A DNA stretch of 63,037 bases, counting the filler, from Craspedostauros australis (Eukaryota), in assembly GCA_030167865.1 (NCBI GenBank). It is 10 parts of 10 records of this genome, joined end to end, with 100 filler letters (N's around TTAATTAATTAA, not from the genome) between each part and the next. Parts side by side here need not be neighbours in the genome. Positions count along the whole stretch, not along the records: positions 1 to 5,901 come from JALAGF010003004.1; 9 more parts are not named here. One strand, written 5' to 3'. A program made the translations under genes and the position numbers. Below are positions 1 through 49,456 of the stretch, piece by piece; position 1 is the stretch's first letter; each line of letters begins with the position of its first letter. The notes below the pieces were generated by a model, which did no database searches, was not told the origin of the DNA, and saw nothing but the letters and a program-made list of their open reading frames with translations.

Positions 1-471
1 GGAGAGCAGAAGGACGCCTACTGACGTTGACAGGATGTCATCGTGTCACCACGTCGACATCTGTCTCCAAGTCAGAGCAGGAGGTGAAGATCCGATGACC
101 AAAGAGGATCAGCATCATGGATACTGAAGGTGAAGTTCAAATGGTAAGTACTCATGGAGTAGTAAGCCAGTAGTGAATGAACAGAGTGTCGACTACGGAG
201 TACGCATCAAACACAGAGTATCGTATGGCACAAAGCACATGATATTGAGAGAGAGAGAGAGAATACAGAGAGGAGCGAGAGAGCATCTTGTGTACCGACT
301 CATAGTCGGAGACCCAATCTACAAAACAGACAGATATGCCAAGAGCATCAGGCAAGAGAACGGAGACATCAAGAGGATCGGAGTGCTCAAGTAATGAAAT
401 AGCAAACGAACGACTATCAACCAATACCATCTTCCACGATCGTAGGTTGCCATGAGCAGAACTTGCCAACA
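1..471 (+). repeat. 5' LTR of copia family A (5' part outside window)
   Basis: Homologous to the inverted copy at 35055-35760 and to fragments at 47112-47544. All copies end at ...CTTGCCAACA, which defines the LTR 3' end. Confidence 0.9.
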
Positions 472-1256
472 CGTTTATAAACGATAGATCAGGGCGAGCC
501 CGTGGATCGGATCGTGTGAGGAAGACGAACATCATTCAAGAGCAGCAGGCTGAATGAGCGAGGAAGAGGAATTGAAAGACATCCCTCTGTCCCAACCCAA
601 CTATCAAGCAAGAAGAAGGTGCGAGTGAGACTTGACCACAACAAGAGAAGGAAGCAGCTGCGGCTACTGTCCTATCAGGCGCAGAGGCAAGCGCCATCGC
701 CAAGACCGAAGAGGAACGGTCTGCAAGACTACATCGCGAGAAGAAGAGGATTCTCAAGGCAGCCAAGCAAGAGGAGACTGGTGTGACGAAGAGCATTCGC
801 ACAGCCAAACAGGGTGGGAAAAGTGAGACGCCACCAGGAGGAGAATTTGTGAGCAAATCAATCTCAGAGCGAGTTTTGGGGTCAAGCGAGTCGTGTAGCT
901 CGTATTGGTCAAAGATTCTGTGACCGTACAGTCATAAGCAACCGAGGCGGAGTGTTTGTGGCTGAAACAACACAAAGGGAAAAAACGAACAGAGCATGTG
1001 TCTTTGTTGGATTCATGGCATGCGGTCACAATCTGGTTCACAACAAGGAGTGTATCAGCAATACACCAACAATAGATAAGCAATAGAAGACTGTCATCTA
1101 TGTGCCTGAGAGTGCTTCACTTCGCGTCCTGAGCACGCAAGCAAGCCAGAATCATTCGTCTCCGCGAAACAACTAGCGAAAATCGAAGAAACGACAACAC
1201 AGAAACGAACGGAAATCAAGGGCACGAGCGCACCAACAACGAAACAACAAGGCAAC

Positions 1257-4200
1257 ATGGCAACATCAGCCAACACGAACAAGCGACACATCAAGGCGCC
1301 GATGTTCAGCGGTGAACAAGAGGATTATAGCCCACGGGAGTCCCAAGCGAAGGCATACGCTCGTACACAGAAGACGAGAGACGTGATGTTGGGCAAGACG
1401 AAGATCCCAACAATGAGCGAGATCGAAGCAGCCACCGGAGAAGACAAGGAAGCATTGGAGGAAACCTACAAGCTGGCATGCAACTGCTTCAGCGACCTGA
1501 TCCTCATAATGGATGCAGAGAAAGGGAAAGGGCAAGCAGGCCATCCAATACATCAATCAGTCCATCTCCAACAATTATCCCGAAGGAGATCCACACGCTG
1601 CATGGAACGTTCTCGCGGAGAAGTTCCGGCCATCCGACGCGGTGACGAAGATCAAACTCAAGCGCCAATTCAACAACGAAAAGATGAAGAGAGACACGGA
1701 CCCCGACATCTACATCACGCAACTCGAGAGTCTACGATCGCGTCTCCACGATGTGAAGTACGAGATCACGGACGAGGAGATGATCATGCAAATCCTCAGC
1801 ACCGTGAGCGTGGAATACAGAACCCACATCGTGAACTTCCATCACCAACTCACGTACAATCCGGAACTGGTTACCATCAACACAATCAGAGGAGTACTCC
1901 GCACAGCACACGCCACTCATCAAGGAGGCAAGGCATACATTGACGACTTCCAAGACAGCAACACGAAGAGCAACGACACCGGCTTCACGAGCACCGGCAA
2001 CTTCAAGGGGACCTGCCACAACTGTGGTGTGTATGGTCACAGATCCTCCGATTGTCCAGAACGCAAGAAATCGAACAACAAGAAAAACAACAACAACAAC
2101 AACAACAAGATGAATGGAAAGCGCAACAACAATCGCAACAAGGGAAGTGGCTTCAACGGCAAGTGCAACTACTGCAGCATCTTCGGACATCGCGAGGCAG
2201 AGTGCCAAAAGAAGAAGTTCAACGAGAAGAAGAAGGCCGACAAACAGGCCAACACAGCAACGGAAGGACACGACAAGAGCGGGCACAAGATGGTACTCTC
2301 TGCAAAAGACACGCCACTCTGCATGTTGGTGTCCGACAACTACATCGAAGACTCCTTCTTCGATAACTTCGAGTGCGTCGGGAGTGACAACGAAGTGCAG
2401 GACGATGAGATCGTCCCGGAATGGCTCAGCGAGGAGCCCATCATCCACGAGGTGGATCCAAGACGCGAAGTGAGCTACGAATGCTGCTTCAATGCAAACG
2501 ACCTGATCGGTCCATAAGGCGACGGAGCCGAGATAGACAGTGAGGCCATCGATAGCGACATCGAAGAGGCAATGAGCAAAGACAACGAAGACGCCGACGA
2601 GAACGGCTCAGACAAAGACGCCGACGAGGACGGCGCAGATGAAGACGATGACGATACCACCAGAGACGAGGCGAACCGCGCCGAGGCGCTGCCTCCTCCA
2701 GCAATGCAGAACGAGAGAATGGGCATCTTCGATGAAGAGGACAGCGACGAAGCTGAAGACCATCCAAGCGATACGTTCAATCCTTATGAACACGTCGTCT
2801 ACCCAATCCGAATCCAATTCCGACCGGAACCAAATCCCAGAAGAGTTGACGACATCTACCGACTCCAGACCTTCCCAGAACCAACGGTCACTGCAAAACG
2901 GATGCAGAAGCAACTCATCTACGACGCGGTGCTAACAGCCGCAATGCCGATGTTTCCAGGGTTCGTGAACGAACCATTGCGATACATTTGGGTGAACATG
3001 GTAAGCACCATCCTTTCCGCTAACTTCAAATCGATTGAAGAGATCCTCGCAAACGCAGCCATTCTCAACCGACTACTGAAGGCAAACGAAGAAGACGAAC
3101 TCTCCGAACTGGACTTACACTACGTCCTCAGAGGATGCATGCAGGTGCTCCTGCGCGAGCGACCACGCGTCACGCCGTATGACACGGTCACTGGAGTTCA
3201 TCGTAACAGCACAGTCCCAGCGCACTTTGCAGAACTACCAAGCGATGACGACATGGACGAAGATCGCAATCCATACAACGAAGATGGAGTCCACGAAGAT
3301 GAAGAAGAAGACAGCCTCATGGATGAAATGGCTGCAGCAGCCATGGAGCAGCTCCACGAGCTGAGCACCAAGTACAAGGACAAGGTCAACAAGGACACCT
3401 GGCTCGCCGACAGCGGAGCTTCGTGTCACATCGTCAATTCGGATGCCGCTCTCTTCACCGTGCGGCACATCAAGTCCTTCCTCCAAGTGGGAGACAGCAC
3501 GAAGCTGGACTCTCCCAAGATGGGATCCATTCGCTTGAAGGTCAAGCAACAAGACAACACTGGCCACATCATCCGGCTCGACGATGTGAAGTGCACACCA
3601 AAAATGGCGGTGAACCTTTTCTCAACGAACAAGGTTCTGTACAACGGTTACCAGCTTGGTAACAACGGCATTCTGATGGACATCATCAACGGATCCGGAA
3701 TGAAGATCGTGTTCGATCGAGTCTTCCCCACATCCAACGGATTCATCACGGGAGTGCAGACGCGTCCCATCATGCCAACAGACGACAACAAGGCTTGCAC
3801 AGCCATCATCAAGAATCCATCCAAGGAGATCAGCGTGGTGAACTTGCATCGAATGCTCGGCCACGCGCCACTCGAGACCATGAAGCGGACAGCCGCTCAA
3901 TACGGATGGAAGATCATTGGCGAGATGCCAGTATGTCGCGACTGCGCGGTCGCGAACGCAAGAGTGAAGAATATTCCGAAGGCAACCATTCCAAGAGCCA
4001 CTCGCCGCGGCGAACGGTTCTTCATTGACATTAGTTANNNNNNNNNNNNNNNNNNNGGAGATAAACGCTACTGGACCCTGATCGTGGACGACTGCACGGA
4101 TCACTGCTGGAGTTTCTTTCTCAAGAACAAAAGTGATCAACCAGGGTACATCAAACGATTCGTCCAGACGATCAAATCACACACAGGTGATCAACAAATC

Positions 4201-5901
4201 ATCTTCCGAGGAGACAACAGCGGAGAGAACAAATCCACGCAGGATATTCTCACCGATGCAGGACTCAACATGAAATTCGAATTCACGGCATCGAACACGC
4301 CGCAACAGAACGGTAGAGTGGAACGCAAGTTCGCGTACCTCTACACCAAGATCCGCTCCATGCTCAATGGAGCACAGCTTGACAAAGAGTATAGGCATGG
4401 CCTGTGGGCAGCAGCTGCGAGCACTGCCACCACCATCGCCAACATCACCGTAGCGAAGAATCAGAAAGAGTCACCGTACCGCCAATTCTTTGGCAACGAT
4501 CCACCATATGCGGATGCACTCCGCACATTTGGAGAAGTGGGTGTTGTGAAGACTACCTATGGCGGGATCACCGCCAAACTCAAGAACAGAGGAGAAGAGA
4601 TGGTGTTCATCGGATATGCACACCAACATGCATCAGGGGTCTACAACATGTGCAGACCATCGACCAAGTCACTCATCTGTTCACGGGACATCAAGTGGCT
4701 CAACCAATCATACGGACAGTTCTGTGGCTGGGCGCCAGCACCGAACATATCCAGCAAAGCAGGAACGACGGACGCAGATGGCTTCACAACCATCAGACGG
4801 AAGGGAGCAATGCCAAGCACGGCAACGCGTCGAACATCAGAAGCGAAGAGAGTATCTTTCGCTGACACGAACAAATACCATATCCTATCAGACACTGATG
4901 ATGAGGATAATGAGGACGACGGAGCAGTGACTCAACTAATCCAGAATGACGAGGAAGATCGGAGCGAATCCAATCATGAGGATGACGAAATCCTACCCTC
5001 CGGCGACGAAGCCGATGACGAGATAGGTGTCACCCCTCCGAATACACCAGCGAGGTCTACACATGACACACCATCGAGACCTCCACCAACCAAACCAAAC
5101 AAGCGTGACATGGCTAGAAAGGAGAGAATCCGACGTCATGAAGCACAAGTCAGGAAGGGAGAAACTAATCCCATGTCAACTACAGGGAAGAGTATTCCCA
5201 GAGCTCTGTGTGAGCTCGCAGACTTCAACGAACGAGGTCGAAAGGAAGAAGGCTATGAGAGCAAGTCATCATCCAACGAAAATAGTGACGAACTGAGCGA
5301 TGAGATGACTGACGAATCCAACAACGAAACTACAGATGACAAAGAAATCGTAGACGAAGAAGAGAAGATCGAGATCACTCATCATAGCACAACAGGACTA
5401 TACAGGATGAATGCAATCATCACCAAGACACCAGCAATCGACATCAGACTGTCGATGCAGGACGAGAACAAGGAATCAAAGAAGCACATCGAACCAACGA
5501 CATTCGATGGAGCCTTCAACCACCCAGATCCCATCCATTGAAAGGGATATCGAGCAGTCATCAAGAAGGAGTTTGACTCAATGGATACACGCAAGGTGTA
5601 CAGCAAGATCAAACGAGACGCCATCCCACACGGCCGCAGATGCTGCAAATGCAAATGGGTCTTCAAGCTGAAACGCGATGGCACACATCGAGCAAGGCTC
5701 GTTGCATGTGGCTATTCACAAGTCGCAGGAGTAGACTTCCAAGAGCATTACTCACCTGTCATCCATGACGTGACCTATTGGGTCATGATGGTGATCATGC
5801 TGATCAAGAAGATGGATTGCGCACTCGTCGATGTCGTAACGGCATTCCTACATGGAGACCTCGACGAGGAGATCTACATGAACTGTCCCAATGGGATGGA
5901 T
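1257..5901 (+). pseudogene. Disrupted gag-pol polyprotein
   Basis: Frameshift near 1520-1535, in-frame TAA at 2515-2517, and in-frame TGA at 5539-5541 where the sister copy at ~57303 has CGA. Confidence 0.85.
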
Positions 5902-6001
5902 NNNNNNNNNNNNNNNNNNNNNNNNNNNNNNNNNNNNNNNNNNNNTTAATTAATTAANNNNNNNNNNNNNNNNNNNNNNNNNNNNNNNNNNNNNNNNNNN
6001 N
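5902..6001. other. Assembly gap with artificial six-frame stop linker (recurs at ~34.68, 44.70, 48.16, 49.40, 52.52, 53.99, 55.82 and 57.49 kb)
   Basis: N44-TTAATTAATTAA-N44 repeated identically. Confidence 0.98.
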
Positions 6002-9418: not shown

Positions 9419-10157
9419 CTTGCTCGTCTTTCGTTAATGGGTGGAACTTGGTGTCTGCTGATAGGAATGGAATGAATGGATGGATGGATGCGCCTCTGCT
9501 GCTGCTGTCACTTGTCAATGTATTTGGATTGCGTTTGCGTTTCTTCGTCTTCGTCTCTTGCTGGTGCTGATTCTGTGTGTCTATGGCAGCAACGGGCCAC
9601 CAAGAAAGGAAGCCTCTCTCTTGTTGTCTCCCGACACTTTGCGCTGCCCTCCTTGCTGTTCTTCCTCCGCAAACCTGTTTCGTGCGTTGGGGGGAGATCT
9701 TTCGCTCTGTTTCCCACGATTGGACCACTTCGATCAGAACAACTTCGATCGTGTGAGAAGGAGAACTGTGAATGGAATTTGGTTGAGGGCTTGTTTGATG
9801 GTACCAGCACGATCGCAGTGGCGCCAAAAACCGATCAGAACTTTCCACGTGGAACCTTGTGGAAGTCCGAGAATTGCCAAAGAACAACCAAGATGCGTGC
9901 CAACAACCACGATCTCTGCGGTCGGGAAAGGGGTGGATGCCAACAATGTTCACCACCGCGAATGGCACCACCGCGAATGGCACCACCAAGAGAGGGAGGA
10001 CGCTGCCATACGACTACGACCTACCAATACACGGACATCCAGAGTACCAGTGTGCTGGATGCATGGGAAACCAACAGACGTTGATGAAGCAATCGCAGTG
10101 CCAACCATGAGAGACACGATGGGGCTTGAAGCGGCGCCAACAACTCGTGCGCTACGA

Positions 10158-11343
10158 ATGCGTGCAATGCGGTGCTTGTTCATAGTTGCTCTCCTGCTTC
10201 TGAATGGCGCCAATGCCTTTCGTTCTGCGCAGGCATCGAGACATCGCCTTCTGAATCCAACCTTCGATGGGACAGCTGCAGCCTCAAATAATCGACCTGC
10301 CACCGTTCGCCAGCCCTTGGCACGCCAAGCTCTGCCAACTACGAGTCCAGGCGCTTCCCTCCATGTCAGCAATGCCATGCATCCTGTCTATCGATGTTCA
10401 CGCACGCGATCATCCACCTTCACGCATGCATCATCATTGCTGCCATCAGCAGCCGCAACATCAGCAACGTCGTCGCAATTGAATGCGCTGCCCGCTGGCC
10501 TCGCCACCGTGTCGTTGCCATCTCAGACTCTGCGAGCGGCGTTGGCGTTGCTCCTTTCATCGGCTGTTGGCATTCGGTTCGATGCGGTGGTTCCAGGTGC
10601 AGGGATTCTCGGGACCTTGCTCACTGCGGCCTTCTTCTCCAACCTCGGGCTCATCCCAACTGCGCACTTCCTCTACGATCTGTGCTGGACGCTCTTCCTC
10701 CCGGCGTCGCTGGCGTTGCTGTTGCTGGCCTTTCGCACGCCCGACAGCAAGGATCTCGCCTCGCAGCCACCGCAGCCTACAACATCCGAATCTAGCGATA
10801 ACGTCAACGCCCGAGCACCACCAGCCGAAGAACCCATCGCAGTTTCCATCCGCGCTGTCGCCATACCATTCCTCGTCGCCTCGGTCTCGTCGTTGCTCGG
10901 TTGCTTGGTATCCTACCTTCTCATCAAGCGCATCCCATCGATCGCATTGCCAATGCGCGATGCGCAGGTGGCAACGGGCTGTCTATCGGCGTCGTTGGTG
11001 GGAGGCAGCGTCAACTTCTTCGCGACGGCCAGGTTGGTGGCTGCACCGGCATCCTTGCTGGGGTCGTTGGCGACGGCGGATCTCATGATCATGGCCGTGT
11101 ACTTCGCCTTCCTCACGGCGGCATTGCAATCGCCGTCCTTCCGAAACTTATTCGTGGTGCCAAGCGATGGGCGTTCCAAAAGTCGCGAAGTGGCAGCAAG
11201 CGAGCTGGGAAAGGATTCCAACGATGATGTATGCAACGATGGCAGCAGCAGCAACAACAACAACAACAACTCAATCATTGGAGCAATATCATCGCCGTTA
11301 CCCTCCACCGCATCCGACTTGGCAAAGGACCTACACAAGACAG

Positions 11344-11384
<41 letters not shown>

Positions 11385-12047
11385 CATGAAGAGGCGCAAC
11401 AGACAAACCCCACTGTGCACAGACAGTCATTGAGACGGATCTTTCGGTCGGCAACGAGAAATACGTACCTGGGGATCTCGGTTTCTGCCATGGCGGTGAT
11501 CATCGTTCGATGCGCCAACTTCATCGAACGCTTGATCCCTCAGGTTCCTGGGATGGCATGCGCTGTCATCGCCGTCGTCGCTCCCTTCATCAACAACTAC
11601 TTCACCAACCGCTTCCAAGGTGAGGACTCCGCCTGGACCACCATGCAACGAATAGCAGGCCCCGTCGGCGATCTATGCTTCCATTGGCTCTTCGCCGCGA
11701 TCGGGACAGGCGCCAACATCCAGCAGGCTCTCATCACGGGACCAGCATGTCTGCTCTTCGTGGCCCTGGCCGTCACCATCCATGTCGGTGGCACCTTCCT
11801 CGGCTGCAACATCGCCCAGCGCATGACGCCGTACTTGCGCAAGCACATGGAGCTGGAGGACGTGCTCATTGCATCCAACGCGGCGATCGGTGGCCCCGCC
11901 ACGGCCGCAGTCTTCTGCAGAGGCATGAAGGGCCCACGTGTACGGGGATGGACCATGGCGGCCACCGTTTGGGGAGTGGTCGGGTACGCGGTCGGGACTA
12001 CCATCGGAGTCGCCATGTTCCGACTCAGCCAGTTCCTGTCTCCATGA
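10158..12047 (+). CDS. DUF819-family multi-pass membrane protein, probably plastid-targeted
   Basis: Motifs GGSVNFFA and IASNAAIGGPATA...GVVGYAVGT with about 10 TM segments. The N-terminal signal peptide ends ANA-F (ASAFAP-like) and is followed by a Ser/Thr/Ala/Arg-rich transit-like region. Start inferred; the ORF is open from 9480. Confidence 0.85.
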
Positions 12048-33506: not shown

Positions 33507-34733
33507 GCTTTGGTTGCTCTTGTTGGCGTACGGTGCTAATCATAGAAGTTATGAACAACCGACTTCAGAGCAGAACCTCAGCAATAATGTTAGTCGGAGT
33601 AGAGCAGAGTACTACCCTCACCGCCCTTGTGGTTGATGGAGCGGACAGAGACATTGCCCTGCCTCCAAACAGAATCATACCCCGTACCACCAACACCAAA
33701 CACAAACACCGCACCAGAGAGAAGCCAAAAGCAGGCGGCGAGGTCGCAAGGGAACAAACAGGGAAGCGAAGGCGGACGTGGAGGCCGCGGCAGATTAGTA
33801 TGATGTATCGCATGGTACGTGCACCACACAATGCCGCGTGCGTGTAGGTGGGAGAGGATCTCATGTCACCACCTCCAGTCATGGGGAAGAAGGCGACGCA
33901 ATTCCGCACAACTCCACAGCCAACGGGTTGAAGCAACCTGTTCGCAAAAGAGGCAGTGGATGTTGGGGTTCGGATTCTCGGTCGCGGCCTGTAGATCTTT
34001 CGTTCTGTGCCAACCATCACACCTGCGTGGATGTCACCAAAAAATCCACAAGAGCGTGCGATACTCCGAAGCGCAGAACGTCATCAAACAACTGGCACGG
34101 AAGAATGCCAGACGAAAGACACGATTTCAGAAAATGACGTGTGGATCATGCTTGTTGTGAGTCACGGAAACTATCGGTTCACGAGTGGGATCCAGAAAGC
34201 GTGGAAGAATGAAATTTGTGCGATTGTGTGAGTCATAGTCGTGGAAACCGCATACGCCGCCTGGGATTGATCGTGGTTTGCTCGCCAACGAATGCGTTGC
34301 CGCGTCGGGCAAAGGCATCGAAGATGTCTGCAACACTCGCATGAGTCGAAGCCGTTGTTACTGTAGCCAAGTTGGGCAGCGAACATCCATTTACCCACGA
34401 TTCTACACGCCTTTGCTTCGTCTTGCAATTTCGTTAATCGATGCATCTTATCGTCTTTTTGTCAAAGTCAACATTCCTGTTGGCGGATGCGATCCAAAAG
34501 ATCCACCCACCTCGCTGGTGCAGTCCTCCATAAGTACTTCATTGCGTGGTGCATAAGTATTGAGGCACTTGTGATCGAAACAGACAGATCAGCAACTTGG
34601 TGGAGACTGCGACAGAACCACGCCTCAATTGGGNNNNNNNNNNNNNNNNNNNNNNNNNNNNNNNNNNNNNNNNNNNNTTAATTAATTAANNNNNNNNNNN
34701 NNNNNNNNNNNNNNNNNNNNNNNNNNNNNNNNN

Positions 34734-34771
34734 TCTAACTGAGGTTCCGGGTTCGAATCCCGGCATGGTAC
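34734..34771 (+). tRNA. 3' half of a tRNA or tRNA-derived sequence (5' half lost in gap; isotype not determinable)
   Basis: AGGTT variable loop, perfect T-arm CCGGG-TTCGAAT-CCCGG, acceptor-like CATGGTA, followed by T-runs. Confidence 0.6.
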
Positions 34772-34816
34772 TTTGCTTTTGCTCACCCCTTGTGATTTTT
34801 CGATAGTGCTCTAATA

Positions 34817-35760
34817 TTCGGTCTCGTCGATCGCGCTTGCCTCTGCGCTTGATAGGACAGTAGCCGCAGCTGCTTCTTTCTCTTGTCGTGGTCGAGTCTC
34901 ACTCGCACCTTCTTCTTGCTTGAGAGTCGGATTGGACAGAGGGATGTCTCTCAATTCCTCTTCCTCGCTCATTCAGTCTGCTGCTCTTGAATGATGTTCG
35001 TCTTCCTTGCACGATCCAATCCACGGGCTCGCCCTGATCTATCGTTTATAAACGTGTTGGCAAGTTCCATGATTGGAAACCTACGATCGTGGAAGATGGT
35101 GTTGGTTGATAGTCGTTCGTTAACTATTTCATTAGTTGAGCACTCCGATCCTCTCAGTGTCCGTTCGTTCTCTTGCCCGATGCTCTCGGCACTTCAATCT
35201 GTTTTGTAGATTCGGTCTCCGACTATGAGTAGGTACGCGAGATGCTCTCTCACTCCTCTCTGTATTCTCTCTCTCTCTCAACATCGTGTGTTCGTGCTAC
35301 ACGATACTCCGTGTTTGATGCGTACTCCGCATTCGACACTCCGTTCATTCACTACTGGTTCCTACTCCATGAGTACTTACCATTTGAAGTTCATCTCCCG
35401 TATCCATGATCTTGATGCCCTTTGGTCATCGGATCTTCACCTTCTGCTTCTGACCTGGAGACAGACGTCGATGTGGTGACACGATGACATCCTGTCGACG
35501 TCAGTAGGCGTCCTTCTGCTCTCCAGATGTCACATTCCATTGGTGATGCAGTGGTCTGTCAGATGATATCATCATCTGAGGTTTAGTTGGGAAGTACCTC
35601 GAGATTCTCTTGGTACCATACGTCTCCATTGATGGATGGACGGATGATATTTCCAATTCTCTCAGAAATCGTCGATTGCAAATTTCCTCCAGAAATTCTG
35701 CTCATTTTCGTGTGTTCCATTTCCACTGTAATTCTGACAAATCACAGCATACTATCGACA
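34817..35760 (-). mobile_element. Copia family A: complete ~706-bp LTR (35760-35055) plus truncated 5' leader
   Basis: Reverse complement of 1-~710. Termini TGTCGA.../...CCAACA. Homology stops at ~34817. Confidence 0.9.
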
Positions 35761-37024: not shown

Positions 37025-39872
37025 CCACGGAGAATTTTCGCCGCGATAATGGAAACAATTTGCGTCAGGATGCAAGTTTTGGCCCTTTTCTGGAATTGTT
37101 GCACCCTGACGCAAATTCTGATTTTGTGTGGAGATTTAACACGACGAGAAAACGGCTGCGACTTGTTGGACTCACATCCACAAAACTCCCTCCTCTTGTG
37201 CGGACTTCCTTCGTCTTGTTTTCGCGTAGTGTGCAGTGTTCTCTGCACCAAGCACATACTCTAGAGGATGCTGTCATTTGCAGTCATAACAAGGATGCCA
37301 ACTCTAGTTTGTTGGTACCATACCAGTAATAGCACAACTACGATGGCATAAACATGGCATTTTCTTTGCCTATCCAGTGTCTTCATGTCTTCTCGACTAC
37401 TTGTATTTCTTCATATGTTGATAGGACCTGCGGTCCATTCCGTTCTTACTTCACTTCATCCTGTGCCTCTCCAGGCAGCTTCACATAGCCACAGTGTCTC
37501 GTTCATTCCTTTTGAGGTGAGATGTGCGTCTTGGTTTGTGTCTGCATCTCTGTTGCTTCCTTTTTCTGTTAGGTTCCAACCTTAATAGATGTTCCCATCG
37601 AATCAACGTCGCCATCTATGCGCTTATCTCTCAAGTAAAGATTGCTTGCTTCATTGAGAAACATGAATGTTAATGTACTAACATAAATAAGAAGATGCAC
37701 GTATTTGATAGCAGGGCGGCAATCAGATTCACCCAGATTGTGGCAACACGCATGACCGCCGCGAATGCAGTCGCCTTCCCACACATCAGTTTCTGTCGAC
37801 CAAAGGGAGCTCACTTGACAACAGTGTGGGTACATGTATATATGTAACTCAAGGACTAAGCTGATTAGTGTTGCACAGCCTGCATCGTAGGCGCTTTTAT
37901 GCCGCTCGCTTTGATCTCGTGTTGGGCACGAGGCAGAACAGCTATCGAGTCGATATGCATATGCGTACAGCAGAAATCGACGCCTGTCTCCAGCACCCTA
38001 TCTCTGCCCCCGCATTCGTGTTGTGCATATGTACCATCGAAATGAACTCATTTGGTTGGCCCAGCTACCATCTATTGCAGAGCCAGTTGTGTACTTTGGT
38101 TGGAACTTGCTTGTCAGGAACACGAAGCACTTGGTGCAGTTGTCCCACCCAAATTGCTACAGTCCCAATGTCTGTGACATCCTCTCCTGTCATCTGTAGT
38201 CTTTCCCGCGCCACTGTATTGGCTTCTTCCTGTATGCTCGCTCCATATTCTCTCACGACTTGCTTCATGTCAGCCTCTGGACCTTCCTCGCTGTGGTGCA
38301 TTGCCTGGTTGCGTTGACGCCTGTTCTCCCATGCTGTTTCCAAAGCTTGTGTAAAGCTTGTGCCGCCCACTTGGCTGCCAAAAGCCTGCACCCCATTTGA
38401 TTGTAGTTGTTTGTCTGAAGCCTCATCCATGATGTTGCGATAACACCCTTCACTAACTGGTTCCATCCGATCTCTTGCTGGCCGTCCGTCAGTGTAGTTT
38501 CGATGTTGTTGGCTCAAATGCACACAACAGGCCCCTGTCCTTGAGTACACTGCTTGGCATTGTGCAGCATAAGCTTTGTGATGGCCGGATGTGTTGACAT
38601 CTTTTGCATCGAGTTCCTCAGCCTTCGTCGCTGCGCCTCCCGCAGAGCCATCAACTCCTGCGACTGACACACCCACAGGTGATCAGGATGCTCCGGTTCG
38701 CCACACCTTGGACAGCTATCCGTTCTCCATGCCTTCCAACGCATCATGAGCGTACCCACTGCTGCCTGTCGCATTAACATCTTCATCGTGAGCACCCGTT
38801 GCGTGTCGGTGAGGTCATTCGCCGCCCTCCATTGCGCCTGTGTGTCAGCTTCGCCTCCATCTGCTTCCATTCCTCTCTCTTCGGACCTTGGCCATGGCCT
38901 CCTCCACCACTTTCCCAACAATGCTACCACATGTGATCCTCGACCTCCGGACACCGTTCCGTGCGACAAACTATGCGTGCTTTCCTATGTGATGGTGCGG
39001 GTACATGTACTGGAAAACAATATCTGCTTCTATTGTTTGTATGACTCATTTGGTCTCAGAATTGAACTCCGCACAGGAAGAACATCCGTGCCTTCATTGG
39101 TGCAAACTCTTGTGTGAGATCCTGTCTTGCGGCAGGGATGCGCCAAGTGTTTGGAAGCCCAAATCCGGTAAGCACAAGTGTGAGGACAAGTGGCAGATCA
39201 TTCCTTTGTATTTGCAGCAATATGGAATAAAAGAAGACCTTGTACTTGCATGAAAACCAAGATTGTTGATGATCAATGTACAGAGGCGAATTGTTGTGCA
39301 GAAGGCACGAACTATGTGCCCCAACCAGCTCTACAGATAACACGGAGCTGACGGGTGACAGAAAACACTCTTTGAACTAAGAAAGAGAAACATAGGCAGC
39401 AAAGCTCGCAAGGAGAGTGGTAGGTTCGCAACAGGAAGGAGGACGACGGAGCCCCATATGAACACATCTGGCTCCTTTCTTCCTCTACGCAAGTAAGAGA
39501 GTATGCAATAGGCAAAGAATGCGATTTACAACACATAAAGTCACTAGTGTATGCATTGCAACTTTGAGAGAGTTGTTTCAATACTATTGTTGCTGGATGT
39601 GGAGCGCAGATAAGATTTGTATCCATCAGTACAAAACAACACGGTAAAACACACAGTATTTGTCCAACAGCACAGGCGACAAATGACGACATTGAATGAT
39701 TTTTTCGACGAGTATTCGAGTGGGTCAGAACATTTTTCGCTCCGTGTTAATTCTTCGCGTTGAGTTTATTTTTTGCACCCTGATGCAACAAATTGAGAAT
39801 CTGTGGGTGACTTGCATCAGGATGCAAAAAATGGGCGTTTTTGCACCCTGACGCAAAAAAAATTCTCCGTGG
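37025..39872. mobile_element. Non-autonomous TIR DNA transposon with ATAT target duplication
   Basis: TIR CCACGGAGAATTTT / AAAATTCTCCGTGG. ATAT at 37021-37024 and 39873-39876. Subterminal TTGCA(C/T)CCTGA(C/T)GCAA repeats at both ends. Excision restores the host frame. Confidence 0.9.
38065..38969 (-). mobile_element. Degraded 3' fragment of a non-LTR retrotransposon (Ambal-like C-terminus)
   Basis: CPRCGEPEHPDHLWVC knuckle followed, across a stop and a frameshift, by QQEIGWNQLVKG...W...LW...W...RN..MH, typical of diatom LINE ORF2 ends. Confidence 0.78.
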
Positions 39873-42800
39873 ATATCGACCAAGATGTCGAGGATATCCC
39901 AGTGCCCGCTCTGGCCGTCGCCGTAGTTTTGGACTGTAAGATGCAATGGGGAGTTGCCCTCACTGTTTTGGACATTCACGTCCACGCCTGCGATCTCAAC
40001 CAAGTGACCCGCCATATCATCGTGTCCACCAGCGCATGCAAAGTGCAGCGGGGTGTGTCCGAGCGCATCTTGTAAGTTGACATTGGCATTTGGCAGCGTG
40101 AGCAGGCCTTTCACGACGTCAACGTGCCCACCAGCGGCGGCAGCGTGTATGAGTGTGCTTGCGTTACTGTACCTAGCATCAATTTGGAGGTCGGCTTGTG
40201 CGATGAGATATTCGATCACAGAAAGACGTCCGTAGGTGTAGGCAAGGAGCAGCGGTGTGCAGCCTCGTTGGTCTTGGATGTTGATATTAGCCTGTGCCTC
40301 TTCAACCAGATGTTTCACCACTTCAAGGCGCCCACCTGCGCACGCAAAGTGCAGCGGAGTTTGGCCAGCGGTGTTGAGGATGTTGACGCCGGTATTGGTC
40401 TGTCCCCTCAAGTATTGCACCACCTCAAGATGCCCTTTCATGCTCGCAAAATGCAATGGGGTTTGGCCAGCGCTGTTGGGAGCGTCGGTACGGGCTCTCC
40501 ACACATCCACCAGATACCGAATGCCATCAGCATGCGTGCAGTCTGCAGCGCACATGAGATGCAGTGGTGTATTGCCCTCGTTGTCCTGCTGATTGACGTC
40601 GAAGTCCTCTTCCGCCAGAAGGTGCTGGATGATGGCATGATGCTGCGCATCTCCATCATCCGAGAATGTTTGTTTGCTGCAGGCAATGTGCAACAGCGTT
40701 TGGCCAGCATTATTCCGAACATGCATTTGGCTGTCCTCCCTATCAGCCAGGTACTTGAACATCTCGAAGTGTCCGTCCTTGATGATGATGTGCAAAGGGG
40801 TGTTGCCGTCATTATCCGCGATATTGACATCCGCGTATGCTTCCACGAGCCCTTCGACGAGAACGTTGTATCCGCTCTCAGATGTGTACTGCTTGCATAC
40901 TTCCATCAGCGGCGTTTGATGATGGTGATTGGGGATGTTGACATCGATTTGTGGATGTTGCAAGAGCATGTTGAGTACCTCCACCCAATGGCTGTCGTCG
41001 AATCCCGGATCATGCTCTCGGCAGGCAAGATACAAGGGGGTATTCCCATCATTGTCTTGAGCGTTGATGTTGATATTGATGTTGGTGATGTCGATCAAGT
41101 ACCTTACGGTCTCGTGTCGTCCAAATCGTGCGGCGCAATGAAGTCCAGTTCTGCCATCCTTGGTCGTGAGACCAGGATTGAAGCCAGCAGACTCGATGAG
41201 ATGCTGAACGGTCTCTAATTGGCCATGGCAACACGCATCGTGCAACGGCGTGTTCTCATATTGTATGTTGATGCCGTCACCAAGCGGACCTGTCAAGTAC
41301 TCGACCACATCCTTGTGTCTGTGTTGGCAAGCGAGGTCAAGGGGAGTATGACCAAGCGCAGATTGGATGTTGATGAGGGAGTTGACAGCCTCCAGGTTGG
41401 ATTCCACGAAGAGTTTGACCACACGCATGTGGCCTTGCTGGCATACAATATGCAATGGCGTGCGTCCATCGTTGTTGGAGATGATCATGTCGACCGTAGC
41501 GCCCAATCCCATCAAATATTGAATCACCTCGATATTTCCAAACCAACAGGCGCGGTACAGGCCTGTCTCGCATTTATTGTTGCGGGCGTTGACATCGATG
41601 TTGGTCTTCTCTGATTCCACCAAACATTGAACGACGTTGCCTTGTGTAGAACTACAAGCATCATGGAATGGTGTGTTTCCATTGTTGATGTTTGCGACGT
41701 TGACACTGGCGTGGACGTTTGCCTGCCTTGATTGCACAATGCATTGCACCGCTTTGGCGTGTTGGTGTTGGCAAGCAACATGGAGTGCTGTGTCGCCATC
41801 TGAGTTACGAGCGGTGGCATCAATGTTGATCCGAGTAGACTTCACCAAGTACTCTACCACTCCCTCCTGGCCAAAGCGGCATGCCAGATGAAGTGGAGAG
41901 TCTCCATCGTCGTCTTGCATGTTTGGATCTACGTCGTTGCGATCCGATTCCATGAGGCACTTCAGCACAGCTTGACGACCATTGCCACATGCAAGATGGA
42001 TTGGTGTGCATCCGCTGTTGTTGCGGATGCTGAAATCGATTCTGCCGTCCAGATCCGACTTGATCATGCATTCAACGACGCGGAGTTTGCCGTGTCGACA
42101 TGCCAGATGGAGTGGCGAGTCGCCATCGGTGTTTGTGACGTTGAACTTGATGACGTCCTCACCAAATCCAACCATGAATGCGACGATGTCGTCTTGGCCG
42201 TACTGACACGCATAATGGAGCGGTGCGCAGCCAGTTTCGTCTTGCTTGTTGATGTCGATGTGAATCTGCTTGGATGGTATGAAACGATAGACGATGTTCG
42301 TCTGCCCATGTCGGCAGGCCGCATGCAGTGGTTTGTTTTGCTCGAAATCAATCCCGGCTCTATCTGATGTGACGAGATACTCGGCAAGATCCGCGTCCCC
42401 GTTCTTGCAAGCAGCCTCGAGCGGCCTGCGACCCTGATAGTTTCTGATGTTGAGATCAACGTTGGCTTGATCGGATTCCACCATGTATTCCACAACGTCC
42501 CTCTTTCGCTTGCGACAAGCAAGGTTAATTGGCGTGTCGCCGTTTTCGTCTTGGATGTTGACGTCAACGTCGGCTTGATCTGATTTGATGAGGTGTTCGA
42601 CAATGTCGATGTGACCGTTTCGACAGGCGTAGTGAAGCGGTGTGTATCCCTTGTTGTTCTGGGTGTTGGCATCAACAGGTTGTCTGTCGTTGCATTCGAA
42701 CATGTATTGGATCAAGTCCTGGACCGCATTCACCTGTCCGTGGCGACAGGCGACGTGCAGCGGCGTGTTCCCGTTGTTGTTTGCGGCGTTGACGTCCATC

Positions 42801-44753
42801 TTCTCTTGATGATCCTTCAGCATGCGATCGATCACATGTCTCTTGCCATGCCGGCATGCAACATGCAGTGGTGTGTTTCCGTTGCTGTTGGGTGCGTTGC
42901 CACCGCCACCGCCGTTGCCGTTGCCTTGATCGAGCTCAAGCAAGAAGTCGGCAACGCCATCGTGCCCCCGGCGACAGGCACTGTGAAGCGGCGTATTCTT
43001 GTTCTTGTTCTTGTTCTCCGCTTTGGTGTCAACGTTGAGTTGTTGCGAATTCGCCAAATACCTGACGAGATCTTCCTGTCCGGATACGCAGGCGACGTGG
43101 AATGGCGTGTTTCCGTATGTGTTGCGGACCTCGAGTTCACTTTGGCTATCTGTGACGTTGCCATGTATTCCACCGCGTCCTTGTGTCCGCGCCGGCAAGC
43201 GAGATGAAGCGGCGTGTCTTTATCGTAGTTTTGGGCGTTTGCGTTGATCTTGGTTGGTTCTGATTCGACCAGTCGCTTCAGCACACCCGTTTGCCCACGC
43301 CAACAAGCGTCATGCAAAGGCGTATTGCCTCTGTTGTTGGTGACGTTGACATCGACGTCAGTTCGTTGTCGCTTCCTTGCCAACAGAAGTTCGATGTCGT
43401 CTTCGTCCCCGTGCCTGCAACCCAGATGGAGGGGCGTATCTCCATCCGTGTTCTTGATGGAAAGATCCATCTTGTTGCCCACACTTTTGGATTGCAGCAT
43501 GTAGTTGATCACATCTGTGTGCCCCTTCTGGCAGGCGTAGTGAAACGCGGTGAATCCCTTCTTGTTCTTGGCGTTGACATGAACTAAGATGTTGGTGGAT
43601 TTGGCGAGGGCGCGCACCACGTCCAGAAGTCCTGATAGACAGGCAAGGTGGAGCGCGGTGTTTGTCCTATCTTTGCCAGCGAACGACGTGTGTCCTTCCT
43701 GGTTGGCCAGGTAGGATGCGACCAAAGAACGGATCCACTCCTCGTCACGTTCTGCTGAAACGTGACCAAGCGGCGTCTTGCCAAGGTGGTCCTTGGTGTC
43801 GAAATTGGCATGGAAATGGCTGTCGCTGTGGTTGAGGTGCAGGAAGTACTCAACCACATCCGTGTGTCGCTTTCGACACGCGTAATGCAGCGGCGTCCAA
43901 CCGTTGTTGTTCTGCATATTGATGTCGATGTCGATGTCGATGCTGGTGGCTGTGTTGGTTGTGCTGTCGTTGTGGATGGATTGAATCAACGTATTGACCA
44001 CGTCCCTGTAGCCCTTGCGGCAGGCCAGGTGGAGGGGTGTGTTGCCGTCGTTGTTTCGAATGTTGATGCATACATTGCCTGCGTCCACCCCCAGCAAACG
44101 CCAGATGATGCCTCTACGCCGAAATTCGCAAGCCACATGCAGTGGAGTGTTGCCCCTTTCGTCTAGAGCGCTGATCTTCTCGATGGACCCATCCGCCGTG
44201 ATCAATTCTTGCACTCTCGCTACGTCGCCAGCACGGCAAACATCGTGAAGCTCCATGTTGTGTCTGAGCTGTTGGTCCTGCATGTTGGATGCGAAAGAGA
44301 AACCATGGGCGAGAGAAACAAAATGTAAAGGACACTCGGATGAGGACGATGAGCAAACGCGGCCGCTGTTTGAATCATGCCCAGCTCACAGAAGCCTCAA
44401 CAGGGACTCGGACAGCATGCGACCATACCATCCATCAACGTGATCGTTTCCTTTCGCATTCCCCAATTCAGACAGCCACATCATGCATGGAAGCCACAGC
44501 AAAACGAGACACTAGCGGCTATTGGCTAATTTCCGGTTGTTGGCACTTTTTGGTAATTATTGGAAACCATTGTGGGATTATTCCAGTGACTCAATTTTAA
44601 GGCACGGGAATTTCCCGATCGTGTCGGAAGCAAATCTTCGATCATGATGAATTNNNNNNNNNNNNNNNNNNNNNNNNNNNNNNNNNNNNNNNNNNNNTTA
44701 ATTAATTAANNNNNNNNNNNNNNNNNNNNNNNNNNNNNNNNNNNNNNNNNNNN

Positions 44754-46547
44754 AGTTGCCGTTGTTGCGGTTGCCATTGCCGCGGTTGCCGTTCTTCTTG
44801 GCGCCACCGCCTTGCTTGCCGTTGCCGCTCTTGGTTGGGGAGCGACAGTCCGCCTTCTTGTGCCCGTAGACGCCACAGTTGCGACAGTTGCCCTTGAACC
44901 CGCCGATCGCGGCCAAGGCCATCTCTTCCTTGCCATGGTTGCCTCCTTCGCGCTTAGAACCATGTTTGGTATGGTGGCGGTCGTAGGTGAGGCACACGGC
45001 CTCGCGGATGTCNNNNNNNNNNNNNNNNNNNNNNNNNNNNNNNNNNNNNNNNNNNNNNNNNNNNNNNNNNNNNNNNNNNNNNNNNNNNAGAGCGTTGAGC
45101 ACAAGCATGTTGTATTGCTCGGCGTCCATCTTCACGCCAGCACTCTCCAAACGGTTGCGGAGCACCTCCATGTCGGTGAGAAACGAATCAGGGCGCTCGC
45201 CCTTCTTCAACCGCATTCCATTGAGTTGAGCCAACAACTGCGCCTTCACTGGTGCAGTACGTTGCTCGTAGATGCACTCGAGCGCCTTCCACGCCTTGCG
45301 TGGGTCACCTGCCTCGTAGGTACCGCTCTTGCATCCCAGCACAGCCATGAAGGCAACATTGCCTTCCGGAGTTTCATGGTTAATCGCCATGGTCAGTTCT
45401 TCAAACACGTACTTCGCCAACGCCTTACGGTACTCAGCCTTCTCCTTGTAGGTCATGGCTGACACCTTCTTGGGTTCCCCCGTACCCGAGTCTCCGCCCG
45501 TCGTCGGGGCAAGGCCGGATGGTCCGAGAGGTTCATCCTTCACCACCACGGCATCCGCAGCTTGGAGGTAAAAGTTCCCGTAGCCCTTGCGTTCAGCGCG
45601 GGTGAGGAACTTAGCGCTCCATGCGTTCCAAGAGGACTTCTTTCCGTCGAACACGATGGGGTAACGATCGGACTTGCCAAAGAGGGAGCTCATGATGATG
45701 GTGGTGGTGAGGGTGATGGCGAGTGTTGCTGTGCTGATGGTAGTAGAAACGTAGGATTTCAATCGTAACGTTTCGAAACGTGTTGGAAATCCGGGGTTAT
45801 AGATATAGTCTAATGCTTATTAAACTGTACTGTTTTAGAACTGTGAGAACAACACACTCATTTCTCAAATCGTCGACTCGTTTGCCCATGATGATGTTGA
45901 TGGCCTCCTGTAGATGCCCCTCACAATCATCATTGCAATCTCTCTCTGTCATACCCATTTCATTGCTCGTCTGCTGAGATATCGGTCTACACTCCTGAGG
46001 TGCATACATGCTGATGCTTGATTCACTCTCTTCTCATCAGGCATCCATCACTCATTCAGTACACTCTTCTGTGTTGTTCACTCACTCCTCTCACATGCTC
46101 GCCGACAATCACACTTGCTCAGAACATGGAGTTCTGGCACGATCAGTCCAGTCCTTCGATGTTGTTCCAGTCCACACTTTGTTCTCCTTCGCTGGTTCTC
46201 TATCGGTCACGTAATCATGTTCTGGGTTCCGAGCGATTCAATCCGTGATTGCGTTCTTGCATAGATGTTTCAAGTTAACCGGTCAACCCTCATGCTTGGA
46301 ACACTTCGGTGTTCCAGTCTCCTTTTTCACATCCATCGTTCGCCATACCAGTTCGTAAATCCACTCAAACCATGTCTCACGATTAGTCTGTCCGTCGTCC
46401 GTCATACTCTTGACACACAGAGGAGGAGGTCCACAATAGACTTGGGAGNGTGTCCGACTTTGNTAGATCGGTGAGTCTAATTTTGGTATTATGGGAGGTG
46501 CGGCAATCTAGGATAATACGACATAGTCGCACCCTCGATTCCTGACA
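44754..46547 (-). mobile_element. Copia family B 5' end: ~767-bp LTR (46547-45781) and gag (ATG 45693 to gap)
   Basis: LTR termini TGTCAGGAATC.../...GATTTCCAACA. Gag motifs FDGKKSSWNAWSAKF, GDPRKAWKAL and the knuckle CRNCGVYGHKKADC. Confidence 0.88.
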
Positions 46548-47111: not shown

Positions 47112-47544
47112 TGTTGATAGACTCATAGTCGGAGACTGAATCTACGAAACAGATTGAAGCGCCAAGAGCATCGGGCAAGAGAACTGGCGTACACCGAGAG
47201 GATCGGAGTAGCCAAGTAATGAAATAGCAAACGAACGACTATCAACCAATACCATCTTCCACGATCGTAGGCTTCCGTGAGCGGAACTTGCCAACACACG
47301 AGCACACGATATTGAGAGAGAGAGAGAGAGAGAACACGACGAGCAGCGAGAGAGTATCTCGCTCACCGACTCATAGTCGGAGACTGAATCTACAAAACAG
47401 ATTGAAGCGCCGAGAGCATCGGACAAGAGAACTGGCGTACACCGAGAGGATCGGAGTAGCCAAGTAATGAAATAGCAAACAAACGACTATCAACCAATAC
47501 CATCTTCCACGATCGTAGGCTTCCAATCACGGAACTTGCCAACA
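47112..47544 (+). repeat. Rearranged family A LTR: 5' tip fused to two tandem 3' segments
   Basis: TGTTGATAG (LTR 5' tip) is joined to an internal LTR position. The two segments end in CTTGCCAACA at 47296 and 47544. Confidence 0.85.
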
Positions 47545-47684
47545 CTCCTGTTCTGCGTTTGGCGAGGTTCTTATACTGTCAGAGGACAGGCTACCCTTTC
47601 TTCATTGTAGGACAGAGATCAATCACGTTCGTCTGTAATCATGGCTGTGACGAATAATATCCAAAGGTGTGACGAATAATATCG

Positions 47685-47738: not shown

Positions 47739-48215
47739 TGGATGCTGGTGCTGGACATGGAAATAGAAAGGTAAAATATGATTACAGCAAAAATAGAGGG
47801 CAAAAGAAGTCCGGTTGTGTCCGGCTTTGCCTTCCAGTGTCGGACTTTGGCAGGTCAAAAGGGGAAGTGAAACTGCCAACGTCAGCGCGGTTAAACGTAG
47901 TGTGACCACGAACGTAGATGAGACGATTGAGAATGTGTTTTGAGTTGATTTGGTGGTTGTAAAGCTTGAGTTTTGTAAGATTGTTGTTTTTATGAGATTG
48001 TTTTGATTGAAGGTTGGAGAGGAAAACGAGATGGGCTGGTCATCACACTGCTCTGCTGTTGGTTGTCGCTGTTCATGGTCTTGTACATTTGAAAAATTGC
48101 TCCACAATCCCCAGGCNNNNNNNNNNNNNNNNNNNNNNNNNNNNNNNNNNNNNNNNNNNNTTAATTAATTAANNNNNNNNNNNNNNNNNNNNNNNNNNNN
48201 NNNNNNNNNNNNNNN

Positions 48216-49356
48216 NCAGCAAGCCCAAGTTCAATGGGGAGTGTAAGTACTGCGGTAAGAAGGGACACAAGATCCTACAGTGCTTCAAGCTGAAGGCAGC
48301 TATGAAGGAGGCAGACTCGGCCAATGTGGCGACTGATGGGATGGAAGGAAATAACGACGTGGCTCTTGTAATGACAGACGAGCTAATTTGTGTGCCCACC
48401 TTGGGAAACACGAACGAATTGGAAAATGTGACCAACTTGTCTGTGAACACAGGCGAAGCGAAAACACGTGACAACGACAGCAATTACCAAGCTGACTCCA
48501 AGGTAATGGAAGACGTCGCCTTTGCCGCCATCGTCGAACAGACTGACACATCTCCCATTCTTTCCTTGAGACCACACAACGTCAACAACAAGATGAGCAA
48601 CTCCAACCGAGGACAGGAGTCCTACTACGACGCAAGCCTCACCAACGAAGGGGCCACGGACACCGAAGATGTTGATGATGACATGGGCGGAGCCGACCAA
48701 GAGGGAACGGCCCGCCGCCCGGTGTACAACTTCGCTCCTGAGCTCTCTCGTGTGGACCGCATGATTGAGAACTCTTCACAACTCACCACCAACACAGCGT
48801 GGTGCCCTCTGTGCCTCAAGCGAGGACCACTCTACGCATGGTGCGTGGAATGCCCGGAGGTTCCCTTCTTCATCCAACTCCACACCAACCCAAGCGGAGA
48901 CGTGCCTACCAACGACGAGGAACGCGCAGAACGCCGCGCCATACTCGCANGAGCTGGTTCCCTCCGCCACGCTATCCGAGCGTCGCTGAGCAACGTGCTC
49001 CCGGCCAATGATGTGCGATCTGAACTGGCCTTATTGTGTTACGATGCTGTGGATACCCACACAGGGGACCACACTCCACAAATTGAGCCGCGCTCCGTGT
49101 ACTTCAAGCTACATGAGATAGGAATGATCAACACGGTGAGCGTCTGTCGCAACCCCTGCAACATCAACAACAGTTTGGAGTCTCGCCACCTCCAACCTTT
49201 CCCCAGCGACCTGCTCTCGTGCATGACTCTCCACGCTACGCACTCCATCCTTTGGATGTATCATGAAAGCGACAAGGGGGTTCGAGACTCAAGGGCGGAG
49301 CTCTCGGTGTTACCGCTCTTCTCGGAACACGGTGAAGACCACGAGGTGGCTATGGT
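48216..49356 (+). mobile_element. Copia polyprotein fragment (Gag knuckle to pre-protease spacer); could be a third family or the downstream part of family B
   Basis: KFNGECKYCGKKGHKILQC knuckle, acidic spacer, a CxxC-X9-CxxC motif, and a helical domain weakly similar to the family A spacer domain. Confidence 0.7.
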
Positions 49357-49456
49357 NNNNNNNNNNNNNNNNNNNNNNNNNNNNNNNNNNNNNNNNNNNN
49401 TTAATTAATTAANNNNNNNNNNNNNNNNNNNNNNNNNNNNNNNNNNNNNNNNNNNN

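Follow-up and report, generated by a model that had tools for sequence, protein, structure and literature searches.

Two diverged families of Ty1/copia retrotransposons in the genome of Craspedostauros australis (GenBank assembly GCA_030167865.1), here called family A and family B, carry a perfect palindrome of 12 or 14 nt directly after the 5′ long terminal repeat (LTR), at the position that is held by the primer binding site (PBS) in their tRNA-type relatives. Comparison with relatives that were collected independently of this motif supports two conclusions drawn from sequence, namely that the site is not a tRNA-type PBS, and that it is under selection for self-complementarity along its full length. 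Reverse transcription in almost all LTR retroelements starts from a borrowed host tRNA; to our knowledge, Tf1-type self-priming is the sole worked-out exception, and the hairpin site of the fungal GalEa elements is a second apparent one, whose mechanism is unexplained. The elements described here would represent the same kind of solution in a deeply diverged copia clade from a diatom-like genome and from environmental DNA, and they make the question of how PBS-less copia elements are primed a concrete one, with cutting and priming between two copies, a hairpin, and a dimerization site as the competing answers.

All positions are coordinates of the window, which is the whole stretch of 63,037 nt that was analysed. 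The window is a chain of short contigs, and features that adjoin in it are perhaps not neighbours in the genome; it contains ten N44-TTAATTAATTAA-N44 linkers, for example at 5902-6001, 34634-34733 and 44654-44753, with seven more elsewhere.

Palindromes at the PBS position of two copia families

In copy 1 of family A, the 5′ LTR (1-471, plus strand) is truncated by the window start and ends with ...CTTGCCAACA, and the palindrome CGTTTATAAACG (472-483, plus strand) stands at the PBS position directly after ...GCCAACA. Copy 2 lies on the minus strand, with its 5′ LTR at 35055-35524 and the same palindrome, CGTTTATAAACG, at 35043-35054; its leader continues to about 34817 and then stops, and the stretch 35524-34817 is 90% identical to the LTR and leader of copy 1 across 715 nt. 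The LTR end of family A was confirmed independently by a family-A-like LTR fragment (47120-47545, plus strand), which ends with the same ...GCCAACA at 47545 and diverges after it, with no palindrome following. This fragment also has an internal tandem duplication, 47120-47297 and 47368-47545 being 95% identical. In family B, a minus-strand element, the 12-nt core CGTTTCGAAACG (45769-45780) is located immediately 3′ of the LTR end ...TTCCAACA / ...GGATTTCCAACA.

An earlier note on this DNA, made from the sequence alone, had reported palindromes directly after CAACA at these three places, and its sequences were reproduced exactly. The length of 12 nt that it gave for both families holds for family A, and the palindrome of family B proved to be 14 nt long (ACGTTTCGAAACGT, 45768-45781, minus strand), its first A being the last base of the LTR. 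Similarly, of the reported leader lengths of about 785 and 75 nt, that of family A was recovered (785 nt); in family B, the ATG lies 87 nt from the LTR end and 75 nt after the palindrome.

The coding regions place both families in Ty1/copia. Family A has a gag (1257-2517, plus strand) that is split by a frameshift into two open reading frames (1257-1943 and 1513-2517) and encodes Retrotran_gag_2 and a CCHC zinc knuckle, followed by a pol (2572-5901, plus strand) with Pol_BBD, an integrase SH3-like domain and the start of RVT_2, so that the Pfam domain order is Retrotran_gag_2, zf-CCHC, Pol_BBD, SH3_retrovirus and RVT_2. The gag of family B (44698-45693, minus strand) contains Retrotran_gag_2, a CCHC knuckle and an N run; Retrotran_gag_2 is the only Pfam match of this family before the gap, and it is this match that places family B in Ty1/copia. 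Both elements are fragmentary: a scaffold gap truncates family A at 5902, and another truncates family B at 44697-44753. The window contains neither a complete element nor a pair of LTRs, only ...CAACA LTR ends being visible, and when it was searched for further LTR starts or ends, the matches were limited to the family B site already known and a chance one in an ankyrin gene. The two Gag proteins, which had been described as very different, are indeed only 27% identical over 192 residues, yet they are still related (E 2e-21); judged from this relationship, A and B are two diverged families of a single lineage.

The chance level of the motif was then set against its occurrence in the window. 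The pattern CGTTTNNAAACG has three matches versus 0.08 expected, and none of 100 shuffles reached three. Perfect 12-nt palindromes of any sequence number 16 natural ones (26 minus 10 in linkers), and 20 shuffles gave 8-21. A 12-nt palindrome is not rare alone, and the signal lies in its position and its conservation. The single central AT-to-CG swap that distinguishes the two families is likewise weak evidence when taken alone, as a double change preserves the symmetry in one of three cases by chance. For these two reasons, the test needed relatives chosen independently of the site.

Relatives selected by their Gag knuckle carry palindromes at the same place

Gag A had 1471 relatives at E≤0.001 in the representative library. 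For the locus search, an alignment of 11 Gag sequences (A2) was used, an earlier one of 55 sequences (A1) being too diverse for this purpose; the A2 search pattern, C[NHR]NCG[KV]YG, describes the zinc knuckle and is independent of the palindrome site. In metagenome contigs, 349 stretches matched the knuckle pattern, and 24 loci were confirmed.

A perfect palindrome of 10-14 nt was found directly 3′ of ...AACA in all seven close-group loci whose contig reaches the junction. These palindromes are CGTTTAAACG in L014, CGTTTTAAAACG in L015 and L016, CGTTTATAAACG in the near-identical pair L017 and L022, CGCTAATTAGCG in L018 and CGATTATAATCG in L021, each after the LTR end. Their core has the form CG-NNNN(NN)NNNN-CG and often includes the last A of the LTR; in five of the eight palindrome families (family B, L014, L015, L016 and L018), the palindrome extends to this A and the T that follows. 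In L016, L017, L018 and L021, the LTR was delimited independently: TGTT(G/A) comes after a GGAAGGG purine tract, and short terminal inverted repeats match the (C/T)AACA end, for example TGTTAGAA...TTCTAACA, as is typical of TG...CA LTRs. Since the LTR is delimited on its own evidence in these four loci, the palindrome does abut the LTR.

The more distant loci of the same search provided a positive control. A half-tRNA-Met-type site, GGTTATG(A/G)GCCC (GGTTATGAGCCC or GGTTATGGGCCC), stands directly after the LTR in L023, L025, L027, L028 and L030, and in L029 and L031, TGGTAGCG... follows CA, a possible tRNA-Met 3′-end site recognized by eye at putative LTR ends. Ordinary tRNA-Met-type sites were therefore detected where present. 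The junction is unreadable in L019, L020 and L024, whose contigs are too short, and in L026 and L032-L037, which match little beyond the zinc knuckle. As read from these junctions, the palindrome clade is composed of window families A and B and at least six metagenome families.

A Gag tree of 18 rows (omitting L030, whose frame is short, L026 and L032-L037) placed the palindrome families on one side of the midpoint split with moderate support (86/88), together with three loci of unknown junction, and the tRNA-type families on the other side. The half-tRNA-iMet site is likely the ancestral or sister state. Most palindrome families have long end branches (0.9-1.3), and the within-clade Gag identity of the window families does not exceed 34%. 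L015 and L016 share a TA centre yet are not sisters in the tree; in view of this and of the long branches, the central changes probably represent several events.

Among the metagenome loci, L014 has a single 1708-codon gag-pol frame with YVDD and SRPDI, and a protein-cluster search with its polyprotein returned copia clusters with no recorded taxa. Positions 1-408 and 5536-5944 of this contig repeat each other, as do the ends of L025 and L032 (96-98% identical). Because the contig ends repeat in this way, L014, L025 and L032 are circular permutations, assembled through one LTR; the LTR-palindrome junction of L014 was read at 5518-5540. L020 begins with TAAAAC... (1-12); a GTTTTAAAAC-type palindrome that lost its left half at the contig end could account for this. 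In L030 (2060-2125), and also in L025, L027 and L028, the LTR-end motif GCTGAGCTGCTACAGGT is duplicated within the LTR, and the upstream copy continues into GGTATATACC. The latter was considered as a post-LTR palindrome of these four loci and rejected, as it is internal to the LTR and a half-tRNA-Met-type site is present.

Searches of other collections returned no relatives, neither the single-protein locus searches of viral contigs with pol A and gag B nor the searches of viral contigs and of prokaryote genome contigs with alignment A2. A word-indexed protein search with gag B gave nothing at E≤1e-5 among proteins of 182-581 aa, longer proteins lying outside that search.

The two arms of the palindrome change together

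The junctions were compared in alignment A3, which holds 10 sequences in 8 distinct rows and in which six mirrored pairs of positions were counted. Watson–Crick pairing was retained in 47 of the 47 pair cells of the distinct rows. Three of the six pairs showed changes on both sides (6 cells), and no pair showed a one-sided change. Specifically, positions 3/10 changed from T-A to C-G in L018 and to A-T in L021, positions 5/8 from T-A to A-T in L018, and positions 6/7 from A-T to C-G in family B and to T-A in L015 and L016, and L014 has a symmetric deletion of exactly the two central bases. The covariation score was reached by 0 of 500 shuffles, and when the partners were slid by 1-3 columns, only 30-46% of the cells paired. 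G-U pairs were found in 0 of the 47 cells, and the central four bases are self-complementary in every version (TATA, TCGA, TTAA and AATT).

The complete Watson–Crick pairing, the double changes in both arms and centre, and the lack of any one-sided change thus support selection on the site for self-complementarity along its full length. Such covariation tells what is selected, that is, the complementarity of the site to itself over its whole extent. Substitutions in relatives that break the symmetry, which the earlier note had held to speak against its proposal, were looked for and did not occur.

The same pattern bears on the possibility that the palindrome acts at the DNA level, for instance as the binding site of a dimeric protein, or is a by-product with no role in replication. 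Several variants do contain known 6-nt palindromes of the restriction type or the E-box type, and 12-nt palindromes are, as given above, common by chance in the window. However, the sequence of a protein site would be conserved, with no co-variation through different base pairs, and chance cannot put a palindrome at the LTR end in all seven loci and in three window copies. Moreover, the arm pattern had 13 matches in viral contigs, all in unrelated contexts with no retroelement around them and with 0 gag or pol relatives, and the centre was palindromic in only one of the 13. A DNA-level site or by-product is thus regarded as highly improbable.

No tRNA-type primer site was detected in the palindrome families

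The Met-type motifs that were looked for upstream of gag were found in none of the eight palindrome families, and the half-tRNA-iMet PBS GGTTATG(A/G)GCCC is absent from all eight. TGG is absent from the first 80 nt in five of the eight, and no other k-mer block is common to the leaders except purine-rich runs. With the half-tRNA-iMet PBS of copia and Ty5, which is present in the five distant loci named above, the palindrome shares the position right after ...ACA, but its sequence is a different one and varies symmetrically between families. These results support the conclusion that the site is not a tRNA-type PBS, in agreement with the earlier note. A Tf1-type complement in the LTR was also rejected: in all five LTRs tested, the longest stretch complementary to the site measures 5-6 nt versus a shuffle mean of 5.9-6.5, which is the level of shuffled sequence.

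It may also be asked whether the partner of the site is a host RNA, for which an organellar tRNA or a fragment from inside a tRNA (half tRNA-Ile, tRNA-Arg) could be considered. Priming by half tRNAs does occur among copia elements, with half tRNA-Met and half tRNA-Ile described for plants in parts of PMC6317226. The relatives L023, L025, L027, L028 and L030 use a half-tRNA-Met-type site, and it can be reasoned that TTATAAA and TTCGAAA, as complements, could mirror 7-nt anticodon loops. Against such pairing, arms and centre differ among families, always symmetrically, whereas a site templated by a tRNA would be conserved or would track tRNAs, and would not stay an even, perfect palindrome. In addition, the bases flanking the putative loop do not appear, from the sequence, to pair as an anticodon stem, and neither ARAGORN nor Rfam (gathering thresholds) called an RNA gene in the window. 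We therefore give pairing with a host RNA very little weight. Small tRNA fragments target the PBS of LTR elements, and with regard to host control, such fragments would find no target in the palindrome elements.

A stretch at 34734-34780, with GGTTCGAATCC as a T-arm and with an acceptor strand, resembles a tRNA gene in its 3′ half and was called by neither ARAGORN nor Rfam. It adjoins a scaffold gap, just past the breakpoint of family A copy 2.

Predicted RNA structure around the palindrome

In minimum free energy (MFE) folds, the U5 end is predicted to pair with the leader about 20 nt past the junction, and the palindrome is placed at the apex of this stem. The predicted strands in family A are UUCCACGAUC in U5 (432-441, plus strand) and GAUCGUGUGAGGAA in the leader (510-523, plus strand), for which the duplex compared with shuffles gave z -2.1 and a fraction of 0.023. 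In family B, the U5 end GGAUUUCC (45785-45792, minus strand, element sense) would form the 5′ strand, with GGAUUUC pairing with the leader strand GAAAUCC (45754-45760, minus strand, element sense), and in L016, UUCUUCUAG would pair with CUAGAAGAA. The energies of the U5-leader duplexes were under the shuffle mean in all eight families, with fractions of 0.010-0.247, and combining these fractions by hand with Fisher's method gave roughly 2e-4 for mononucleotide shuffles. Single-sequence folds of the region were no better than shuffles (z -0.16 to -1.33).

The pairing of the palindrome with itself was computed in both possible forms, and hairpins reached -1.2 to -4.9 kcal/mol versus -14.6 to -21.8 kcal/mol for homodimer duplexes. 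A downstream complement of the site beat shuffles in only two of the eight families. In family B, ACGUUUC (45746-45752, minus strand, element sense), located 15 nt 3′ of the palindrome, can pair over 7 bp with its 3′ half GAAACGU (fraction of shuffles 0.036), and in L014 the fraction was 0.016; in the other six families, the downstream complement was no better than in shuffles.

A second perfect palindrome of 8-12 nt was observed in five of the eight families, directly after the first or overlapping it by 1-2 nt (L014:5540-5549, L015:820-829, L016:2930-2939, L018:1864-1875 and L021:1536-1545). The arms of this second palindrome also co-vary between families (TTCAGCTGAA, TTAGGCCTAA and CTAGATCTAG). 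Families A and B of the window and L017 lack this second palindrome.

A fungal precedent and possible priming by a hairpin

Whether such a site had been reported before was left open by the earlier note. Fungal GalEa copia elements do provide a close analogue, the Conserved Hairpin Site, which is a palindrome in place of the PBS and for which the parts of the 2017 description considered here (PMC5445492) leave the mechanism open. As given there, the first component, CHSeq1, is 9 nt long, CTGATCAGT or CTAATTAGT, becomes palindromic with the last A of the LTR, and has mirrored variants. The second component, CHSeq2, lies 2-41 nt downstream and is inverse-complementary to CHSeq1 with a fixed A/A mismatch (PMC5445492, same parts). 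The GalEa LTRs end with ...caaCA, the transcript start has no complement according to these parts, and the background of the same paper assigns both GalEa and the diatom CoDi clades to copia 'branch 1' (PMC5445492). For diatom elements, no published description of the site was found, subscription journals being outside the search. A term search of the main text of Maumus 2009 (PMC2806351, on CoDi) found no mention of a primer binding site, and "Conserved Hairpin Site" was found in the literature only in PMC5445492 and in a bivalve TRIM paper that cites it.

Like GalEa, the palindrome families lack a tRNA-type PBS, by the counts of Met-type motifs and of TGG given above. In both groups the palindrome abuts the LTR (here in eight of eight families, with the last A of the LTR included in five), and its variants differ by mirrored changes, as CTGATCAGT does from CTAATTAGT in GalEa. 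Unlike the 9+1 nt of GalEa (ACTGATCAGT), the palindrome here is 10-14 nt long, with CG...CG ends and an A/T-rich core. Its sequences, CGTTT(NN)AAACG, CGCTAATTAGCG and CGATTATAATCG, differ from CHSeq1, and only L018 contains CTAATTAG, inside a longer palindrome. Further differences are the downstream CHSeq2 partner, which is limited to the two families described above, the second adjacent palindrome in five of the eight, the Gag knuckle, which is C2C4H4C here and C2C4C4H in fungal GalEa, and the hosts, which here are diatom-like or unknown environmental eukaryotes. The YVDD and SRPDI of L014 resemble metazoan rows of the motif tables, which are not diagnostic for GalEa placement. The feature thus has a precedent, and the present lineage is set apart by the greater length and the other sequence of its palindrome, by the usual lack of a downstream partner, and by the frequent presence of a second palindrome.

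In two families, the words that directly follow the palindrome, ATAGATCAG in family A (484-492, plus strand) and ATAGAATCG in L017 (L017:4446-4454), match or nearly match the GalEa CHSeq2 consensus A(C/T)AGAT(C/T)AG. No complementary partner was found upstream of either word, and the resemblance could reflect chance or deep homology.

The fungal case suggests that priming might take place by a hairpin within one RNA, the site either folding on itself or pairing with a downstream complement. Several observations are in keeping with this suggestion, including the 7-bp pairing in family B, the better-than-shuffled complement in L014, the combination of CHSeq1 and CHSeq2 in the fungal precedent as described in parts of PMC5445492, and the identity of ATAGATCAG in family A with the CHSeq2 consensus, as seen by comparison with the supplement table. 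Yet the downstream complement is at shuffle level in six of the eight families, the self-hairpins are barely stable, and the single-sequence folds are not better than those of shuffles. Furthermore, a tetraloop has no need of a self-complementary centre, and all versions of the palindrome have one. Hairpin priming is accordingly considered improbable. Because the homodimer is far more stable, because the central four bases are self-complementary where a tetraloop hairpin would not require it, and because a downstream partner is present in only two of eight families, the data speak more for a full-length duplex formed by two copies than for a small hairpin.

Possible priming between two palindrome copies

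Based on the above, we tentatively propose tRNA-independent priming by pairing of two palindrome copies, a model that we rank first among the readings considered here, without holding it to be probable. The palindrome of a genomic RNA would pair over its full length with the same palindrome of a co-packaged second RNA. In Tf1, the primer is released by RNase H cleavage within an RNA duplex; by analogy, cleavage where the paired stretch ends on its 3′ side would leave a 3′-OH beside U5, and this freed 3′-OH would prime minus-strand strong-stop DNA. The primer would be a copy of the site, and each cycle of plus-strand synthesis would use one arm as the template for the other. A heteroduplex would arise whenever a single arm had changed, and it would be resolved either to the old sequence or to the mirrored new one; the proposed arm-to-arm copying would for this reason permit only symmetric states and no G-U pairs. 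In a more specific form, which is possible but doubtful, the two co-packaged RNAs would prime each other: a palindrome duplex of 12-14 bp would be cut at each 3′ edge, and the R-U5-palindrome fragment of each RNA would be the primer for its partner. If this were true, built-in copying would keep the site a perfect Watson–Crick palindrome, one-arm changes being erased or mirrored, and an entire eukaryotic retrotransposon clade would be freed from host tRNAs. The earlier note had suggested tRNA-independent priming by a hairpin or by pairing between the two packaged RNAs; tRNA independence and a selected self-complementarity have found support here, and the priming itself, by hairpin or by RNA–RNA pairing, is what we infer.

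The proposed priming between copies resembles that of Tf1 in being independent of tRNA, in using the RNA of the element itself, and in having its priming region directly after the LTR in a U5-leader structure. In Tf1, the PBS is not palindromic and pairs with the beginning of the transcript. Unlike that PBS, the site described here is complementary to itself, and its complement was detected in none of the five LTRs. Tf1/Tf2-type self-priming has also been predicted for the plant TAR copia and Tcn1 lineages, as stated in parts of PMC6317226.

Alternatively, the palindrome may be a dimerization site only, which links the two packaged RNAs, with a separate and unrecognized primer. The loop palindrome of the HIV-1 dimerization initiation site (DIS) and the retroviral 'pal' near the PBS link packaged RNAs, and natural variants of the HIV-1 DIS stay palindromic (GCGCGC versus GUGCAC). 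Like the retroviral DIS and the Ty1 PAL, the site is a self-complementary 5′ leader sequence, and it would be presented by a stem, here the predicted U5-leader stem with the palindrome at its apex. It is self-complementary over its whole length, centre included, its homodimer duplex is much more stable than its hairpin, and Ty1 is described as dimerizing through palindromes in parts of PMC6844567. However, the DIS and PAL elements keep a separate tRNA PBS, whereas here the palindrome itself takes the exact PBS position, abutting the LTR as the PBS does in the tRNA-type relatives, and no other PBS is detectable, the leaders having no other conserved block that could serve as one. Also, a purely structural RNA helix usually tolerates G-U pairs, which were missing from all the pair cells. 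A role in dimerization alone is thus thought unlikely, although it retains some credibility.

Several points weigh against priming between palindrome copies and against the reading of the covariation that underlies it. With a cut after the palindrome in both RNAs, no copy of the PBS would remain on the minus strand for the second jump; the second strand transfer seems to be the main open problem, and the model needs at least one intact template or another way out. The second adjacent palindrome in five of the eight families is not accounted for by the model. The covariation sample is small, with its 8 distinct rows related by descent, and alignment A3 is centred on the motif, which biases the shuffle and slide controls in favour of structure; the absence of G-U pairs could, in a sample of this size, be due to chance. 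The individual tests of the U5-leader duplex are weak (z -0.6 to -2.8, mononucleotide shuffles), and, as the U5 piece was cut 4 nt before the LTR end by choice, the register of the stem was partly chosen.

Other features of the window

Outside families A and B, a host gene encoding DUF819 was found at 9480-12047, and the commonest recorded phylum of its nearest cluster is Bacillariophyta, a hint, short of proof, at a diatom host. Two ankyrin-repeat frames of 1157 and 483 aa (39725-44283, minus strand) adjoin the family B fragment across a linker. The segments 52575-52948 and 54045-54418 form an inverted repeat of 374 nt that is 100% complementary, and both arms adjoin linkers; it is probably one contig end that was placed twice, an assembly artifact. 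Finally, a run of long open frames (48173-52459, plus strand), which starts after a linker with the CCHC knuckle CKYCGKKGHKILQC and has no Pfam match at E≤0.01, may be another, very diverged retroelement.

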